From a virus: a stretch of DNA of 64,000 nt. A program made the translations under genes and the position numbers. The stretch spans positions 1 through 64,000 of the IMG/VR virus record IMGVR_UViG_3300027659_000017, one strand, 5' to 3'. Positions 8,219 to 51,276 of the stretch are shown here, piece after piece (within the stretch, counting starts at the first letter, position 1; every line of letters begins with the position of its first letter). The notes below the pieces were generated by a model. That model worked only from the letters and a program-made list of their open reading frames with translations, made no database searches and was not told the DNA's origin.

Positions 8219-8512
8219 ATGAAAAACCAACAAGAAGAACAACTGACACCTGAACAGTTAGAGGCAAGAAGAGATGAAATGAAAAACTTCTATGAGTCAT
8301 CTATTCCTTATCTTGAAGCTCAAGCAAAGTATGAGAAGTTACTTACTGATGTAGAAGAGTCAAGATACAAAAGAGCTACTATGCAAATTCAGTATGCAAC
8401 TATGATGGCTGCAACTCAAGGAGCAGATCTAGATGAAGAAGATGATGACATGCCAGAACAACCAGTTGCACCAGCACCGGCAGCAGGGAATAAAAAGTTA
8501 AAGAGAGGTTAA
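8219..8512 (+). CDS. hypothetical coiled-coil protein
   Basis: 97 aa helical ORF after promoter. Confidence 0.75.
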   Translation: MKNQQEEQLTPEQLEARRDEMKNFYESSIPYLEAQAKYEKLLTDVEESRYKRATMQIQYATMMAATQGADLDEEDDDMPEQPVAPAPAAGNKKLKRG

Positions 8513-15857: not shown

Positions 15858-15886
15858 TAAATTTTTCAAGTTTATTTTGTATATTA
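15858..15886 (+). promoter_or_regulatory. TAAAT-N7-GTTTA palindrome plus TTTTGTATATTA promoter motif
   Basis: intergenic, upstream of head genes. Confidence 0.55.
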
Positions 15887-15911
15887 AAGTATAACATAAA
15901 AAACCAACAAC

Positions 15912-17195: not shown

Positions 17196-18812
17196 ATGGC
17201 AACTCCAGTTTTAAACAATGGTATATTCCTCAGAGATACCGCTTACAATGCAAGTTCCCATGTGGATTCATACCACTTGGTTAACATGCTAAAAGATGCT
17301 GAGCCTATGGATTTAGGTCCAGTTGACCTATGGGCAATGGCTCAGAAAGTTGAAATGCCTCTTTACCAAATGTCTTCTTTTGGTGGGAAAAATGTAATCA
17401 TGGTTGACAATGCTCGTGGAGAGTACAGATGGCAGACTCCTGTATCTGTAGATCTTCCTTACATTATTGAGGACATTGAACCAAACTTAGAATTCAAAGG
17501 TACAGATGGTTCTACTTTCCGTATTAAACTTAACAGACGTGAATTTGGACACGGTGATATCATCACTTATGACAAGTATAACGGAGTTGAGATGTACATT
17601 ACAGATGAAGATATCCTTCCTATGGGAGACGGATTCATCTATACCGTACAATTGGTAAACAATGATAACTTCAAATATCTTGATTCTAAGTATTTGACAA
17701 ATGGTACTAAAGTATTCCGTAAAGGTTCTGCACGTGGTGAGTATGGAGAAAGATTCTCTGACATTACTACAAGAACTGGTTTCCGTGAGTTTTACAACTT
17801 CGTAGGAGGAGCAGAAGCACACGTACATTATTCTATTTCATCTCGTGCTGACTTGATGATCAAAGGTGGAATGAATGCAGATGGTACAGTTCCAGTAACT
17901 GAGATCTGGAGATCATTTGATAAAAACAATGACCCTTCTGTATCTTCATTGGAAGACATGATCAAGATCATGGGTAAAGACAAAGTTAAACGTGCATTTG
18001 ATAACGGTGACTTGTCTAGAACTTTCTTGACTCAAATGGAAGCTGCTCACTTGACAAAAGTTGCAACTGACATTGAGACTTACTTGATGTGGGGACAAGG
18101 AGGTAGAGTTCGTCAAGATGGTCCAGATGACATCAGATTGTCTGTCGGTCTTTGGAGACAGTTGGATAACTCATTCAAAAGAGTATACAACAAGAATAAC
18201 TTTACTCTTGATTTGTTCCGTGGAGAAATCTACAACTTCTTCAATGGTAAGGTTGAGTTCCAAGGTCCAGATCCAAAACGTTCTCTAGTAGTTCAAACTG
18301 GTATGGGTGGAATGAGAATGGTAAATGAAGCTATCAAGAGAGAAGCTGTTGCATCTGGTCTTTTGATTCAGGCTGCTGATATCGGTGCAATCACTGGTAA
18401 AGGAATGGACTTGAACTTTGGATTTGCTTACACTTCTTATGTTATTCCATTCTTGGCTAACGTTAAGTTTGTGTTGAACCCAGCATTTGACAACGTTCAT
18501 ACAAATGATATTGAGAACCCAATCATTGATGGTTTCCCATTGTCATCTTACTCATTCATTATCTTTGATATCACTGATAATACAAATGATAACATCTACC
18601 TATTGAAGTTGTCTTGGGATAACCAATTGAAGTGGTGGTATCAAAATGGTACAATGGACTACATGGGCCGTACACAAGGGTTCCAGTCTTCTGGTCAATT
18701 CAATGGGTACCGTGTAATGATGTCTCAAACAATGCCGGCTATTTGGGTTAAAGATCCAACTAAAGTCTTGAAGATTGTTATGAGAAACCCTGTAACAGGT
18801 GGTTCATTCTAA
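17196..18812 (+). CDS. major capsid protein
   Basis: 538 aa, synteny, biased codon usage (ttc/aac/cgt), downstream terminator; EYRW and GLWRQL motifs. Confidence 0.8.
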   Translation: MATPVLNNGIFLRDTAYNASSHVDSYHLVNMLKDAEPMDLGPVDLWAMAQKVEMPLYQMSSFGGKNVIMVDNARGEYRWQTPVSVDLPYIIEDIEPNLEFKGTDGSTFRIKLNRREFGHGDIITYDKYNGVEMYITDEDILPMGDGFIYTVQLVNNDNFKYLDSKYLTNGTKVFRKGSARGEYGERFSDITTRTGFREFYNFVGGAEAHVHYSISSRADLMIKGGMNADGTVPVTEIWRSFDKNNDPSVSSLEDMIKIMGKDKVKRAFDNGDLSRTFLTQMEAAHLTKVATDIETYLMWGQGGRVRQDGPDDIRLSVGLWRQLDNSFKRVYNKNNFTLDLFRGEIYNFFNGKVEFQGPDPKRSLVVQTGMGGMRMVNEAIKREAVASGLLIQAADIGAITGKGMDLNFGFAYTSYVIPFLANVKFVLNPAFDNVHTNDIENPIIDGFPLSSYSFIIFDITDNTNDNIYLLKLSWDNQLKWWYQNGTMDYMGRTQGFQSSGQFNGYRVMMSQTMPAIWVKDPTKVLKIVMRNPVTGGSF

Positions 18813-18832
18813 CCCTATCATATATAATAAAC

Positions 18833-18862
18833 GGGAGGGAGGTAACTCTCTCCCTTTTTTTT
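18833..18862 (+). terminator. intrinsic terminator after MCP
   Basis: gggagggag/ctctctccc stem plus T8. Confidence 0.85.
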
Positions 18863-18898
18863 AAGTAACCAAAAATCAACAAATAAAAAACCAACAAC

Positions 18899-25975: not shown

Positions 25976-25993
25976 ACCCAAAAAACCAACAAA

Positions 25994-26188
25994 ATGAGTA
26001 AATGTCCAAATTGTGGAGCCCCGTTAAGTTGTGGCTGCCAAAAAAAGAAAGCTTCAAATGGAACATTAGTGTGTGCTAACTGCATAACAAAGTATGAAAG
26101 AACACTTTTAACTGAACCATCTGTACTTACTGATTTAGCAAAGAATGTGGGCCGGTATAAAAACTTAGAAAAGTTTATAAAGAAATGA
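25994..26188 (+). CDS. small Cys-rich protein
   Basis: CPNC..SCGCQ..CANC. Confidence 0.65.
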   Translation: MSKCPNCGAPLSCGCQKKKASNGTLVCANCITKYERTLLTEPSVLTDLAKNVGRYKNLEKFIKK

Positions 26189-28599: not shown

Positions 28600-28610
28600 T
28601 TTGTATATTA
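28581..28610 (+). promoter_or_regulatory. putative late promoter TTG-N20-TATATTA
   Basis: recurrent motif before ATG 28627. Confidence 0.5.
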
Positions 28611-28626
28611 TAAATAGAAGAAAAAT

Positions 28627-30027: not shown

Positions 30028-31305
30028 ATGGCAACTAATAATTGTTCAACTCCAAATTGCGGATGTTCAAACAGTTACTCTGTAACTGCACCATGTCCAC
30101 CATCATGTCCTGAAGTATTTAATGCTCAGTGTATTGTATACACAGGAACTGATATTATGTGTAATCAAGATGTAGTAATCAAGAGATATGATTACCTTGA
30201 TACAATCATTACTAAACTTGTTAACTACCTATGTAATGTTGAAGCTCCAATTTCAACAGTAGTAGGATCAGAATATATTGATGTAGTATCTAATACTGTA
30301 GCTAACATAACCACTTATACTGTTTCTGTAGATATCCCAGCATTACAAGCATACTTTGATTTAATCATTGCTCAGACTATTGCATCTTCATTCTTTGAAG
30401 GTCCTGGAATTGATGTTTCAGTAAACCCTATTACAAGTGCAGTTACAATATCACATCAAGATACATCAAGTGTAAGTAACTTAAATAGTGATAACTCTGG
30501 CAACAGTTTTATCCAAGATATCTTCTTTACATTTGATACTTTTGGTCACGTAACTGGTGCATCAGTAGTACCGGGAACTGTAATTCCACCAAATGATTAT
30601 GACAGAGCTACAGTTAATCCAGATGTAGGATTTACATGGGGACCTAACAACGACCCTACAAATATACAAATTGCAGAGGCTCCTGGAGATACATTGAACT
30701 TTGTAGCAGGAACAGGTATTACTCTTAATGGAAGTACTGTACCTAGTACAGATGCAATTAGAATTACTAATAGTGATCCAGGTTCTGCTGTAACATTGGC
30801 ATCTGCAGGTGGTACTGAAACTTTGGTTAATGATGGTGTAGGACCTGCTTTGGTAACAAAAGGTTTAACGGCAGGTACAGGAATCTCTTTAACAGGTTCA
30901 GGAACTGACATTACTATTACTAATACAGCACCGGATGTTCCAGTTGTATTAACATCTGCTGGAGGAACTGAGACATTAGTAAATGATGGTACTGGTCCAT
31001 CTTTAGCTACTAAAGGATTGACTGCAGGTTATGGTGTTACATTAACAGGTTCTGCTACCGAAGTAACTATTGCTGCAGCAGTAAACAAGTATACATCAGG
31101 AGGTGTATCAGGAAATGCTGTTATTACTCACAGCTTAAATACAACTGCTATTGTTGTGTCTGTTGTTGAGTCTACATTGCCACCGGCACTTGCATTTTAT
31201 GCAGGAGTAGATTATACATTCTCTATTGATTCTTTGAATCAAATTACAGTAAGTGAAATAGTACCTGGAGCTCTGGGGAATTATAAAGTAACTGTTATAG
31301 GATAA
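30028..31305 (+). CDS. fibre protein with AGTGI repeats
   Basis: AQCIVYTG N-module like 28627; 51-aa internal duplication; ITHSLNT C-module. Confidence 0.65.
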   Translation: MATNNCSTPNCGCSNSYSVTAPCPPSCPEVFNAQCIVYTGTDIMCNQDVVIKRYDYLDTIITKLVNYLCNVEAPISTVVGSEYIDVVSNTVANITTYTVSVDIPALQAYFDLIIAQTIASSFFEGPGIDVSVNPITSAVTISHQDTSSVSNLNSDNSGNSFIQDIFFTFDTFGHVTGASVVPGTVIPPNDYDRATVNPDVGFTWGPNNDPTNIQIAEAPGDTLNFVAGTGITLNGSTVPSTDAIRITNSDPGSAVTLASAGGTETLVNDGVGPALVTKGLTAGTGISLTGSGTDITITNTAPDVPVVLTSAGGTETLVNDGTGPSLATKGLTAGYGVTLTGSATEVTIAAAVNKYTSGGVSGNAVITHSLNTTAIVVSVVESTLPPALAFYAGVDYTFSIDSLNQITVSEIVPGALGNYKVTVIG

Positions 31306-31375
31306 TTGTTACAGGTTTGTTGGTTTCTGTGACAACAACGGCAAAGCCCCTACACTTGTAGGGGTTTTGTTTTTT
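31306..31375 (+). ncRNA. 3'-end structured RNA: 10-bp hairpin with TTTGTTGGTT loop plus terminator
   Basis: ttgttacagg/tctgtgacaa stem (31306-31335); caaagcccctaca/tgtaggggttttg terminator (31342-31375). Confidence 0.5.
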
Positions 31376-31415
31376 GGTTACATTTGTTAATGTCATTTAT
31401 TTTTAGTATATTAAT

Positions 31416-31997
31416 ATGAAGGAATTTAATAAACCTGATGTAAAATCTTCTAGGTATCGACCTGAAGCACACACTATTTTGACCAAAGAGTTCTTTGATA
31501 ACTTTAAAAAAGCACATCCTAAATACAAGGATATGGATAACAAACTTCTTAGAAAGATCATTAAGAGATTTAATCAGATAGTTTATCAGTCCGTAATTGA
31601 TACAAGAGATGGAGTGCAGTTGCCTGAACAGTTAGGCTGGTTATTTATTGGTACCTGTGATAGAAGTAAAAAGGACAATATTGATTTTGCTAAGTCTAAA
31701 AAGTACGGAGTAAAAGTTACTAATAACAACTGGGAAACAGATGGTAAGCTAGCTAAAATATTCTTTACTAACTATGCACCAAAACACAAAATGAAGAATA
31801 GAGAATTTTGGGGTTTTACAGCATGTAGAGAATTTAAAAGAGCAGTAGCCAAGTCATATCCAGAAAACTGGAATATGTACATTCAAGTGGTACCAAAGGC
31901 AAAGATTGATAAAGTTTATAATAGTGTAATTTACAGAGACCATTTAGATAAAGTGAACAAAAAGGCTTTAGAAAGTTATAATGAATTTGACATATGA
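31416..31997 (+). CDS. IHF/HU-like protein of crAss-like tail module
   Basis: GVQLPEQLGWLFIG..NIDF.KSKK..F.ACREFKR; synteny before ring genes. Confidence 0.55.
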   Translation: MKEFNKPDVKSSRYRPEAHTILTKEFFDNFKKAHPKYKDMDNKLLRKIIKRFNQIVYQSVIDTRDGVQLPEQLGWLFIGTCDRSKKDNIDFAKSKKYGVKVTNNNWETDGKLAKIFFTNYAPKHKMKNREFWGFTACREFKRAVAKSYPENWNMYIQVVPKAKIDKVYNSVIYRDHLDKVNKKALESYNEFDI

Positions 31998-33656: not shown

Positions 33657-36600
33657 ATGGCAAAAGATCAAGGTATACAAGACACTAGTAAGGTTTTAAG
33701 TAACTCCTTTACAAAAGGATTAAATAAAGATTCTGACCCTTCATTTGTTTCTGAAGGTATGTGGACACATGCCCGAAATGTTGTAAATAACACAATTGAA
33801 GGTGACGTAGGTACATTATCAAATGAGATCTCAAATGTTCTTTGCGGAACCACAGGAAGAACAATGCCGGCAACAGTGACAGATAAATATATCATTGGTG
33901 CTATCTATCTTTATTCTGATAAATGGTTAGTATTTACGGCAGGACATGGAAACACTGGTCAAAGAATAACATCAGAGATTGGTTTGTACGAAGAAGACAT
34001 CTGTAAGTATAGAGAGATTGTACAGGATCCTTGTTTGAATTTTGATAAAAGATATCTTATCTCTGGTGCTTCTAGAGAAAAAGAAGATTGTACTTGGCAG
34101 GTATACTGGGTAGATGCATTTAATCCAGATAGATTTTTAAATGTTGGTGACCCACAGACATGGCCAGATGCAAGTTACAACTGGGTAGGTGGTGGAGCAA
34201 ATAGTATGAACTATTATTCAAATGGTAGTGATAGTACATTTCTATGGCCGGGTGTTAATTGGAATAAAAACATAACAGTAATTAACGACTGTGATTTTGT
34301 TACTAATACAAATACATTAAATTGTGATCATATAAGACTTGCTAGGTTAATGGAGACACCATGTCTTAATTTGACTTTAGGACAATCTGGTGGGACCATG
34401 GCCAATGGTACTTATTTTGCAATGATTGCATATTGTATCAAAGGCCAGAAAGTAACTGACTGGTTTTCCCAAAGTAATTTTCAGTTTATATACAATGTCA
34501 ATGATTTGTCAGGTTCATTAACACTTGAGGTTAATGCTGATTCAGAAAACTTTGATGAGTTTATTTTAGCAATTGTTGAAGCTACTAACCAACAGACAGT
34601 TGCTTCTCAAATGGGATTCTATTCTACTAAGACTACAAGAATTGCAATTGATCAAATTAACATTGCTACAGTTAAAATTCCATTAGAGCAGTTACCTATT
34701 ACTACACCGGTATATGAAACATCAGATCAGATGACTGATGTAAATGGATATCTATTGAGAGTTGGTCCTAGATCAAAATTTGACTTTAACTATCAACCAC
34801 TTGCCAATATGATCAGAGCAAAATGGGCAAGTGTAGAATACCCAGCTGATTATTATATGAAGGGTGGGAATAAAACAAACTATCTGAGAGACGAAGTATA
34901 TACATTTTACATCAGATGGGTATATGATACTGGAGATAAGTCTGCATCATATCATATTCCAGGTAGAGCACCTAGAAGTTTTAATGTACCTGGTATAGGT
35001 TCTAGATTTGAAACAGAGGCTTTAATAGATCCAAATGCTTTAACTATAGATGATCAAGTATTTGAAGTTTACAATACGGCTTCTATTACCCCGGGAGGAT
35101 TAACTGGTACAACTACTGATGATGGAGGTACTGTAATTGCAGTAGGGGATATGGGTTACTGGCAGTCTTCTGAAAGATATCCTGACAACAGACCTGACAT
35201 TTGGAATCCAAGTGAATATTGTTGGACGGGTGCTGCAGCACAAAATGGTTCTTTTGATTTATGTGGTAAGAATATCAGACATCATAAGTTTCCAGAAAAC
35301 TTTATTGCTAATAGTACTTCTACAGATGCAGTACACTTTAGACCAAATGCAAACATCCCGACCAATGGTCAAGATTTTGCAATCAGGTTAATGGGTGTAT
35401 ACTTTGAAAACATTACTCTTCCAAAAGATCAACAAGGTAAAGACATCCCTGGTATTGTGGGTTATGAAATTCTAAGAGGTTCTAGAGAAGGTAACAAAAC
35501 TATTGTAGCAAAAGGTATGGTCAACAACTTCCGTACTTTCCAATTAAGAGGAAAGCTGGCACAAGGAAGAACTGGACTTTATGCTAACTACCCATACAAC
35601 ACAATTGTACCAATTGGAAGTTCTACAGATCCTGATGACCACAACTACTTGTATAATGATCCTTACATAAAGAATGAGGACTCAGATAACAATGTGGTTA
35701 ATCAATCTATACCGTCAGATATCTTTACATTCCATTCCCCGGATACAATGTTCCGTACACCTTATTTATCTACTACAGAATTTAAGTCTTATGGAATCTT
35801 GAGTGGATATGCTGACTTAGAATTCCAGGAACCAAATGGTCATCCTAATTGGAAATTGTTAGCAAATGCTGTTGTATTTCCTATGATTGTAGGTGGAGTT
35901 GCTGAAGCTATTATTTCTATGTTAGGTAAGAGAACAGTCAATACTCCAAAAGTTTTAAGTTATACAGAACAATATAGAGGTCTTGCTGGAGTTGGTCCAA
36001 TTATTTTTGCATCAGGTTCTAGTACTATTCAGAGTTCAACAGCACAAAATACAGCACTAGGTTTAATTGGAACAGCAGCAACTGCATACAATACTTTTGT
36101 AAATAACTATTACAATGGTCCTGCAACACTTGATGTTGGTTTAATGTTGGCTTTGGGATATTCAGGTACATTATATGAAGGTGCACTATCAAACTACGTT
36201 AATGTAGTAAATACTAATGCTAATTCAGCAGGTATTCCAAAAATTGCAAAATTAGAAGGCTCATTTGAATTTCCAAAATGGGCATATTTAGATCCAGTAA
36301 CAAGACTACTTGGTGCAGCAAATCAAATAGCATATTACTTTGCAGAAGGAGCAGACATTGCACTAAAAGTGTTTTATGCAATAACACCATATAGACAATA
36401 TGCTCTACAACAAGTAAGTCATGGGTTCTATGGTAATATGTTTCCAACTTCAGCTAATGCTCTAAAAAGATTTGACATAGATGATAGTTTTTATATCCGT
36501 GATAATATACAAGAGGTGAGTAAATACCAAGATGTAGTTTCCGGAGTATACCGTACCTATTCAATCAATAATTTAAAGAGATCAGATGCTGTAGTAGTAA

Positions 36601-51219: not shown

Positions 51220-51260
51220 ACTTTATAAGTTTATCCATTAAATTAAATTTTAGTATATTT
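51217..51260 (+). promoter_or_regulatory. TAAAC-N7-GTTTA palindrome plus TTTAGTATATTT promoter motif
   Basis: palindrome 51217-51233 in intergenic gap. Confidence 0.55.
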
Positions 51261-51276
51261 ATATATATAAGAAAAT

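Follow-up and report, generated by a model that had tools for sequence, protein, structure and literature searches.

The window analysed here is the first 64 kb (64,000 nucleotides) of a 97,955 bp virus (IMG/VR record IMGVR_UViG_3300027659_000017). Its large genes all lie on the + strand and its gene layout is crAss-like, with the capsid gene (phrog_11589) at 17196-18812 and giant ORFs from position 33657 on. DNA of this phage is present in freshwater and lake-water metagenome runs. Bacteroidota-type -7 boxes (TAnnTTTG, the consensus quoted in PMC7366714) were found upstream of several window genes, which suggests that Bacteroidota is the host phylum.

Genes 30028 and 31416 are separated by a hairpin, an intrinsic terminator and a promoter-like region. 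The first-pass annotation had described a stem directly after the stop codon of gene 30028, followed by a terminator, and all of the coordinates were confirmed. The features are listed below.

31303-31305, + strand: stop codon TAA of gene 30028 (30028-31305), directly adjoining the hairpin stem
31306-31315, + strand: hairpin 5' arm UUGUUACAGG (RNA fold, covarying stem in 50 distinct sequences, stem haplotypes)
31308-31314, + strand: core of the 5' arm kept in relatives, GUUACAG
31316-31325, + strand: hairpin loop UUUGUUGGUU, the exact complement of AAACCAACAA
31317-31324, + strand: loop core UUGUUGGU, nearly invariant (50 distinct sequences and near relatives)
31326-31335, + strand: hairpin 3' arm UCUGUGACAA (RNA fold, covarying stem)
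31327-31333, + strand: core of the 3' arm kept in relatives, CUGUGAC
31336-31345, + strand: A/C-rich single-stranded spacer CAACGGCAAA, 4-10 nt long, between hairpin and terminator, with a semi-conserved ACAA in the alignments of relatives
31340-31375 (stem 31340-31371), + strand: intrinsic terminator with a G+C stem, a 4-nt loop and a U run (fold, covariation in relatives)
31379-31415, + strand: promoter-like region of gene 31416, in which TACATTTG fits TAnnTTTG, plus a conserved TTTTTAGTATATTAAT box (reading of the sequence, relatives)

The hairpin-terminator element in the window

The hairpin stem in the window is 10 bp long and pairs 31306-31315 with 31326-31335. The 90-nt stretch that holds the hairpin and the terminator folds with a ΔG of -32.3 kcal/mol and a z-score of -4.5, and none of 200 shuffled sequences folded as well. 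A covariance model built from near relatives matched 31303-31380 only, so that the element is single in the window. The other terminators of this genome have no comparable companion hairpin. Because the stop codon abuts the stem, the hairpin cannot have a promoter of its own in this lineage, and a conserved promoter further upstream is likewise impossible because the upstream gene varies among relatives.

Rfam 15, including the C4 antisense RNA, gave no match in the window at gathering thresholds. The best sub-threshold local Rfam match to the element scored 28.8 bits against a threshold of 55 and is at chance level. The loop resembles the D-loop sequence AGUUGGUU; a tRNA or tRNA-like identity was rejected, as ARAGORN found no tRNA or tmRNA in the window. 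A pseudoknot between the UUGUU of the loop and the AACAA just past the stem was judged sterically implausible because both segments adjoin the 7-10-bp stem without a connecting loop.

The gene upstream of the hairpin, 30028-31305, is modular. Its residues 1-251 are 82% identical in two relatives (L012 and L013) and divergent beyond, and other relatives (loci including L016) have unrelated genes at this position. From its sequence, gene 30028 looks like a swappable fibre or receptor-binding cassette with the hairpin-terminator-promoter block as its 3' boundary. The downstream gene, 31416-31997, encodes a basic protein of 193 aa, for which Pfam, PHROG and PDB gave no match. It belongs to a very large, strongly conserved family of 2261 clusters at 90% identity (645 at 50%), in which many K, R, W, F and Y residues are invariant. 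Upstream of several genes (31400-31415, 15877-15892, 28601-28615, 51250-51262 and others) the box TTTT(A/G)GTATATT(A/T)A recurs, with hardly any variation ahead of the 31416 orthologue in all relatives, and it is a candidate for a phage-specific or late promoter. The box sometimes abuts the ATG, suggesting that some genes have very short or absent leaders.

Conservation of the hairpin in relatives

Relatives were gathered in three ways: with the upstream protein, with the downstream 193-aa protein, and with a profile led by a distant family representative. The element was carried by more than 130 distinct relatives in the same arrangement throughout, and it persists to neighbouring-protein identities of about 30-40%. 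Hairpin and terminator were present in all 85 distinct near relatives, in which the downstream protein is 52-88% identical. In the distant set, the loci examined have a downstream protein with 40-50% identity to the lead query, P0121; P0121 in turn is just 42% identical to the window protein. The hairpin stems of this set have no sequence in common with the window stem. Examples are GCUGUGA/UCGCAGC, GUCACG/CGUGAC, AUCACAA/UUGUGAU and UGUCAG/CUGACA, as well as AGUCUAGCUU/AAGCAAGACU, GUUCUGUGU/AUACAGAAC and CAGAAAUGG/CCAUUUUCUG. About 18 unrelated stem sequences were found with pairing kept, including G.U pairs that work on the + strand only.

Covariation was quantified in a structural alignment of 50 distinct sequences fitted to the covariance model, in which 96% of cells pair and both-side changes occur in 14 of the 15 pairs. 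The covariation score was 0.62, compared to 0.30 for shuffled alignments (0/500 reached 0.62) and 0.04-0.11 for slid partners. An independent RNAfold tabulation agrees. The terminator stem (helix 2) covaries as well, with 96% of cells paired and both-side changes in 7 of its 8 pairs. The covariance model found one + strand copy of the element per 20-kb locus. The fold of the + strand was more stable than that of the - strand in 85/85 relatives (mean -8.0 versus -3.6 kcal/mol). Since G.U pairs become A.C on the other strand and the + fold is the stabler in every case, the element is a structure of the sense-transcript RNA and not a DNA operator.

While every stem column varies among the 50 distinct sequences, the loop columns U, G, U, U, G, G and U (U-GUUGG-U) are identical in all 50, and the U's that flank the loop core are the same in 43-47 of them. 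The loop was conserved in 61/64 and 18/20 near relatives. Its invariance extends to relatives whose neighbouring protein has an identity of only about 30-50%. Scanning viral contigs with a pattern anchored on the stem and free in the loop returned mostly unrelated matches, and the standard loop was present in 23/23 real relatives. Conserved leaders facing an unconserved loop, a case that the first-pass annotation had raised, is not what was found: the loop is the most conserved part of the hairpin.

Relatives have widely differing genes upstream of the hairpin, and in seven distant lineages the hairpin-terminator is separated from the usual downstream gene by an extra one. The hairpin always adjoins a terminator, in the extra-gene lineages too. 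The hairpin is therefore tied to the terminator, or RNA 3' end, rather than to either neighbouring gene. Together, these results show that the element is an RNA structure of the + strand, located where a transcription unit ends. The hairpin was absent from Cellulophaga phage phi4:1 and phage csAssE-Sib, whose capsid proteins are ~25-29% identical to that of the window over part of their length.

The element was also found at the syntenic place in a cultured phage, Leptolyngbya phage Lbo-JY46 (L621; PP438436.1, region 75001-125000), whose capsid protein is 29% identical to that of the window. Its stem is AUAUAAA/UUUAUAU and its loop UUUGUUGGUUG, followed by a terminator. Here the element is free-standing: it lies in an intergenic region of 410 nt, past a terminator that belongs to the upstream gene itself, and no homologue of the downstream 193-aa protein was found in this phage. 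The gene order around the capsid gene and the tail module is that of the window. The recorded host is cyanobacterial, yet the genome has Bacteroidota-like boxes (cgTATATTTGtg, cgTATCTTTGtatt). Many TTTGTAAA motifs lie upstream of its genes, and a long run of tRNA genes extends from 118.6 to 123.2 kb. A literature search found no paper on Lbo-JY46.

A leader motif complementary to the loop

The first-pass annotation had reported the complement of the loop, AAACCAACAA, just before the ATGs of genes 15912, 18899 and 25994 and in codons 2-5 of gene 8219. These exact matches were confirmed. The copies at 15901-15910, 18888-18897 and 25983-25992 each end 1 nt before the ATG. The sites are as follows.

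823-839, + strand: leader of gene 841, ATACCAACAAACTGTAA, complementary to the loop and the 5' arm with one bulge
8224-8233, + strand: AAACCAACAA in codons 2-5 of gene 8219, with nucleotide-level conservation in two relatives (L031, L039)
15901-15911, + strand: leader motif AAACCAACAAC before the ATG of gene 15912 (418 aa, upstream of the capsid gene), kept in orthologues
18873-18882, + strand: degenerate second copy of the motif, AAATCAACAA, in the 18899 leader
18888-18898, + strand: leader motif AAACCAACAAC before the ATG of gene 18899 (338 aa, downstream of the capsid gene)
25983-25993, + strand: leader motif AAACCAACAAA, 11/11 complementary to the loop, before the ATG of gene 25994, kept in orthologues

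Further copies of AAACCAACAA occur at two internal coding sites (19653 and 45375) and as the complement of the loop. With up to one mismatch, AAACCAACAA had 30 matches compared to 11.1 expected, and 0/100 shuffles reached 30. The cores were less striking in number: the + strand holds 4 copies of TTGTTGGT (3.8 expected) and 8 of ACCAACAA (5.1 expected). Five of these eight ACCAACAA copies lie at -16 to +7 of start codons, a range that makes up ~2% of the genome. Thus the bare 8-mer is not over-represented genome-wide and its position at start codons is far from chance. The copy of TTGTTGGT that is invariant across the clade is the one in the hairpin loop.

Across the clade, the motif (A)ACCAACAA(A) was found in 1-3 copies, 0-5 nt before the starts of the same few genes. 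These are the orthologues of 15912, 18899 and a zinc-ribbon ORF (25994), and the motif is also found in the early codons of the 8219 orthologue. Among 56 distinct leaders of the 18899 orthologue, 54 have one or two exact copies of ACCAACAA ending 0-5 nt before the ATG, within an A-rich and otherwise variable stretch downstream of the covarying terminator of the capsid gene. Tandem leader copies number up to three in relatives and are often 11-14 bp apart. Leader variants within the clade include ACCAACCA and ACCAACAU. The motif was kept at the orthologous genes in distant hairpin-bearing genomes (G011, G017-G020), which marks it as a functional leader module rather than generic A/C richness. 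A literature search for the motif returned primer matches only.

The 63-aa ORF at 25994-26185, whose leader is the best match to the loop, has CxxC...CxC...CxxC spacing and is conserved across the clade. Its matches to zinc ribbons (Elf1-like) are weak and below threshold. This ORF shares its terminator-bounded transcription unit with the hairpin. A head-assembly role, as proposed in the first-pass annotation, would be a possibility for 15912 and 18899, which flank the capsid gene; no PHROG, Pfam or PDB assignment was obtained for the target proteins, and 15912 has a sub-threshold Atlas lead to scaffolding proteins with a score of 0.83.

The capsid terminator (18812-18898; loci L234-L313) has many compensatory stem changes among relatives, and the tandem ACCAACAA leader follows it directly with no visible promoter. 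The 18899 gene may depend on read-through of this terminator. At 511-840, four TATATTTG boxes of the Bacteroidota -7 type alternate with TCCC..GGGA hairpins and T runs, a layout that looks like tandem short promoter-to-terminator units ahead of gene 841. No connection of their short bodies with the loop or with the leader motif is apparent. The first-pass match between the 841 leader (825-839) and the reverse complement of 31309-31324, with one bulged C, is present in the window. The extended match was not found in five relatives (G001-G004, G010), and we therefore treat it as lineage-specific or due to chance.

The loop core UUGUUGGU is the exact complement of the leader core ACCAACAA, and the U's flanking the former match the A's flanking the latter. 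Loop and leader motif are retained together throughout the freshwater clade. The loop varies in the clade by U3->A/G and by loss of the 3' U's. Where one side of the loop is mutated, the opposite side is kept, and at least 8-9 contiguous nt complementary to AAACCAACAAA are retained in every variant. Compensation of the substitutions in the leaders was inconsistent. The change U3->A (L434 clade, G006-G008; also L486, G020) has no matching change in any leader. For the change U3->G in one relative (L466, G019), a matching change was found in the zinc-ribbon leader (AAACCAACCAA) and in none of three other leaders, and another relative (L472) has the leader variant AAACCAACCAA alongside a normal loop. 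Of the loop-leader covariation that the first-pass annotation had named as a check, co-retention was observed and consistent compensation was not. In Lbo-JY46, the orthologous leaders have no ACCAACAA and just 6-7 nt of complementarity to the loop. Since its loop is kept without the leader motif, the loop must also be constrained by something beyond these leaders.

In the window, eight start regions (seven distinct genes, 25994 twice) had duplex energies of -12 kcal/mol or lower with the loop, compared to 2.8 (maximum 9) for shuffled loops. Hybridisation energy discriminates poorly because U/G-rich loops pair loosely with any A/C-rich leader. In the distant set, a start region with at least 9 complementary nt was found within ±10 kb in 21/48 loci, compared to 1/48 for a reversed control; these intervals include the zinc-ribbon leader and exclude the capsid-flanking genes. 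As a rough estimate, based on the 8-mer frequency and on the assumption that a genome has one to two dozen hairpin loops, the chance of a coincidental loop-leader match is 1e-3 to 1e-2. Pairing of either partner with rRNA, or mimicry of the rRNA by the loop, was considered and rejected, as 120 Bacteroidota rrn loci had no conserved TTGTTGGT or ACCAACAA; TTGTTGGT occurs in 11/120 of these loci, ~75 nt before the probe site in the 16S gene. Collectively, these sequence comparisons make a clade-wide seed-target relationship between loop and leaders plausible.

Possible roles of the loop

The best reading, to which we give an even chance, is that the element is an antisense anti-leader RNA that blocks leaders lacking Shine-Dalgarno (SD) sequences. 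We infer from the complementarity that loop and leaders pair, that a discrete small RNA exists and that its effect is repressive. The element would form the 3' terminus of the late mRNA whose last gene is 30028. The hairpin loop would present a seed of 8-11 nt, (U)UUGUUGGU(UU), next to the intrinsic terminator of the operon, and the hairpin would either stay on the 3' end of the late mRNA or be released. The seed is predicted to pair with (A)ACCAACAA(A) 0-5 nt before starts, sometimes in tandem or within the first five codons. Pairing may occur in trans or, for 25994, in cis, since this gene lies on the same transcript. Hosts with Bacteroidota-type promoters use no SD pairing and need unstructured A-rich leaders. 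In Bacteroidota, the leader sequence and its lack of structure matter for translation, and SD pairing does not (PMC6847099). A duplex over -1 to -12 would keep the 30S subunit off the leader and would lower translation, because such hosts rely on unstructured SD-less leaders. As the late transcript accumulates, less protein would then be made from the zinc-ribbon gene, the genes flanking the capsid gene and a few more. The mode of action has precedents in the Bacteroides sRNAs GibS and FopS, which work independently of Hfq and repress their targets by base-pairing around the start codon (PMC7366714, PMC11697453). Counted against this reading are the inconsistent compensation of loop substitutions, the Lbo-JY46 loop without its leader motif, the poor discrimination by hybridisation energy and the distant loci without a start region of at least 9 complementary nt. 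It is also not yet obvious why a late RNA should repress late genes.

A broader form of this reading is a two-part RNA switch in a very large crAss-like phage clade. The ACCAACAA leader module, single or tandem, would drive a small virion-associated regulon in SD-less hosts, and the anti-leader loop of the late operon would titrate it. We put this forward tentatively and rate it somewhat below an even chance.

Alternatively, the hairpin may be a sequence-specific site for a phage or host protein or RNP that sets the stability, processing or termination of the late transcript, with the leader complementarity secondary or coincidental. Candidates would be an RRM-type RNA binder, a nuclease or a 3'-end protection factor, and Bacteroides has global single-stranded-RNA binders such as RbpB (PMC11697453). 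An invariant loop on a freely varying stem is also a protein-recognition signature. The constant link to a terminator, the uncompensated loop substitutions and the retention of the loop in Lbo-JY46, where the complementary leaders are missing, are consistent with such a site. However, a protein site does not account for a loop that complements, exactly and over 10-11 nt, the leader motif most specific in position, nor for the survival of 8-9 contiguous complementary nt in every loop variant. No candidate protein was found, and the adjacent 193-aa protein is missing from Lbo-JY46. We consider a protein site rather unlikely, although it is the alternative that survives best.

If the pairing is real, it may be intramolecular only, between the 3' loop and the 25994 leader of the same polycistronic transcript. 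The translation of 25994 or the stability of the mRNA would then be coupled to the completion of transcription, and no trans-acting sRNA would be involved. The 11/11 match at 25994 within the shared transcription unit, the zinc-ribbon leader being the sole one to follow a loop change (in L466), and the lack of room for a promoter of the hairpin's own in the window lineage all fit this view. It is weakened by the motif at the capsid-flanking genes, which is at least as well conserved there, and multiplied, and which belongs to other transcription units behind their own terminators. In addition, the Lbo-JY46 element stands alone like an independent RNA gene, and 27/48 distant loci have no start region with at least 9 complementary nt within ±10 kb, zinc-ribbon leader included. 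An exclusively intramolecular role therefore appears improbable to us.

The hairpin could also be just an accessory stem that aids 3'-end stability or termination, its match to the leaders being due to chance. The 8-mer TTGTTGGT is at chance frequency in the genome, and the loose pairing of U/G-rich loops with any A/C-rich leader would favour such a match. An accessory stem does not account for a loop that stayed invariant over deep divergence while the stem was replaced about 18 times, nor for the lack of companion hairpins at the other terminators of the genome, and we regard this explanation as very improbable. Finally, a DNA-level site (an inverted-repeat operator or cruciform, or a reverse copy of a ACCAACAA site bound by a phage DNA-binding protein) would suit the spacing of leader copies by about one helical turn (11-14 bp) and the occurrence of the motif in both orientations, but can practically be dismissed, as the arms are not conserved as half-sites and vary in every stem column, G.U pairs turn into A.C mismatches on the - strand, whose fold is the weaker one in 85/85 relatives, and the leader copies keep a fixed short distance to the start codon even after terminators with no visible promoter.

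The anti-leader RNA would have several known counterparts. Enterobacteria have 3'UTR-derived base-pairing sRNAs that share the terminator of the parental mRNA, such as CpxQ, SroC, DapZ and MicL. Similarly, the hairpin directly follows a stop codon, uses the intrinsic terminator of its operon and has a short conserved seed complementary to the initiation regions of several mRNAs. In contrast to these sRNAs, it is phage-encoded, has its seed in a hairpin loop rather than in a single-stranded 5' stretch, has no known Hfq/RNase E context, is only putatively released, and appears free-standing in Lbo-JY46. The 3'UTR-derived sRNA proposed in the first-pass annotation is supported in part, by a covarying + strand hairpin at a 3' end with an invariant loop complementary to conserved leaders. 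Its release as a discrete RNA of ~70 nt, its action in trans and its control of translation would be predictions, and Lbo-JY46, in which the leader motif is missing, is at odds with it.

In Bacteroides thetaiotaomicron, 21 UTR-derived sRNA candidates have been reported (PMC7366714). GibS and FopS belong to the host phylum suggested for the window phage, and they share with the proposed RNA the independence of Hfq, pairing at the start codons of SD-less mRNAs and a Rho-independent terminator (PMC7366714, PMC11697453). Unlike the hairpin, they have long unstructured 5' seeds and are encoded by chromosomal intergenic genes. The hairpin has no sequence or Rfam relationship to them.

The c4 antisense RNA of phages P1 and P7 (Rfam C4) is cut from an operon transcript, and its loops pair with the ribosome-binding regions of phage genes encoded elsewhere in the genome. 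The hairpin is likewise a phage RNA with a loop complementary to the start regions of distant phage genes, although pairing is here predicted. Whereas c4 carries two loop elements, is encoded upstream of its targets and serves in the control of immunity (ant), the presumed targets of the hairpin are several late genes, and the hairpin has no Rfam match. The plasmid antisense RNAs CopA/CopT and RNAI/RNAII are loop-seeded, cis-encoded and fully complementary to their targets. They share with the hairpin a loop on a stable stem as the start of recognition, whereas the hairpin is encoded away from its presumed targets and has 8-11 nt of complementarity. The hairpin lies outside every Rfam family and is a new RNA family that resembles known kinds of sRNA.

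To our knowledge, essentially nothing is known about RNA-based regulation in crAss-like phages and their relatives, or about post-transcriptional control in hosts without SD pairing. The element is among the most conserved non-coding features of a very large group of uncultured phages, and the hairpin is a convenient marker for the clade of the window phage. Even if its partner is a protein, it is a structured RNA family that is new and well supported and that merits an Rfam entry. If the loop pairs with the leaders, a phage regulon of genes around the capsid gene would be defined, and ACCAACAA would be a translation-initiation module for SD-less hosts, useful in expression design for Bacteroidota. 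Should the two-part switch be true, a phage-encoded RNA would run a post-transcriptional regulon that has been kept over deep divergence, and the cultured phage Lbo-JY46 is available for tests.
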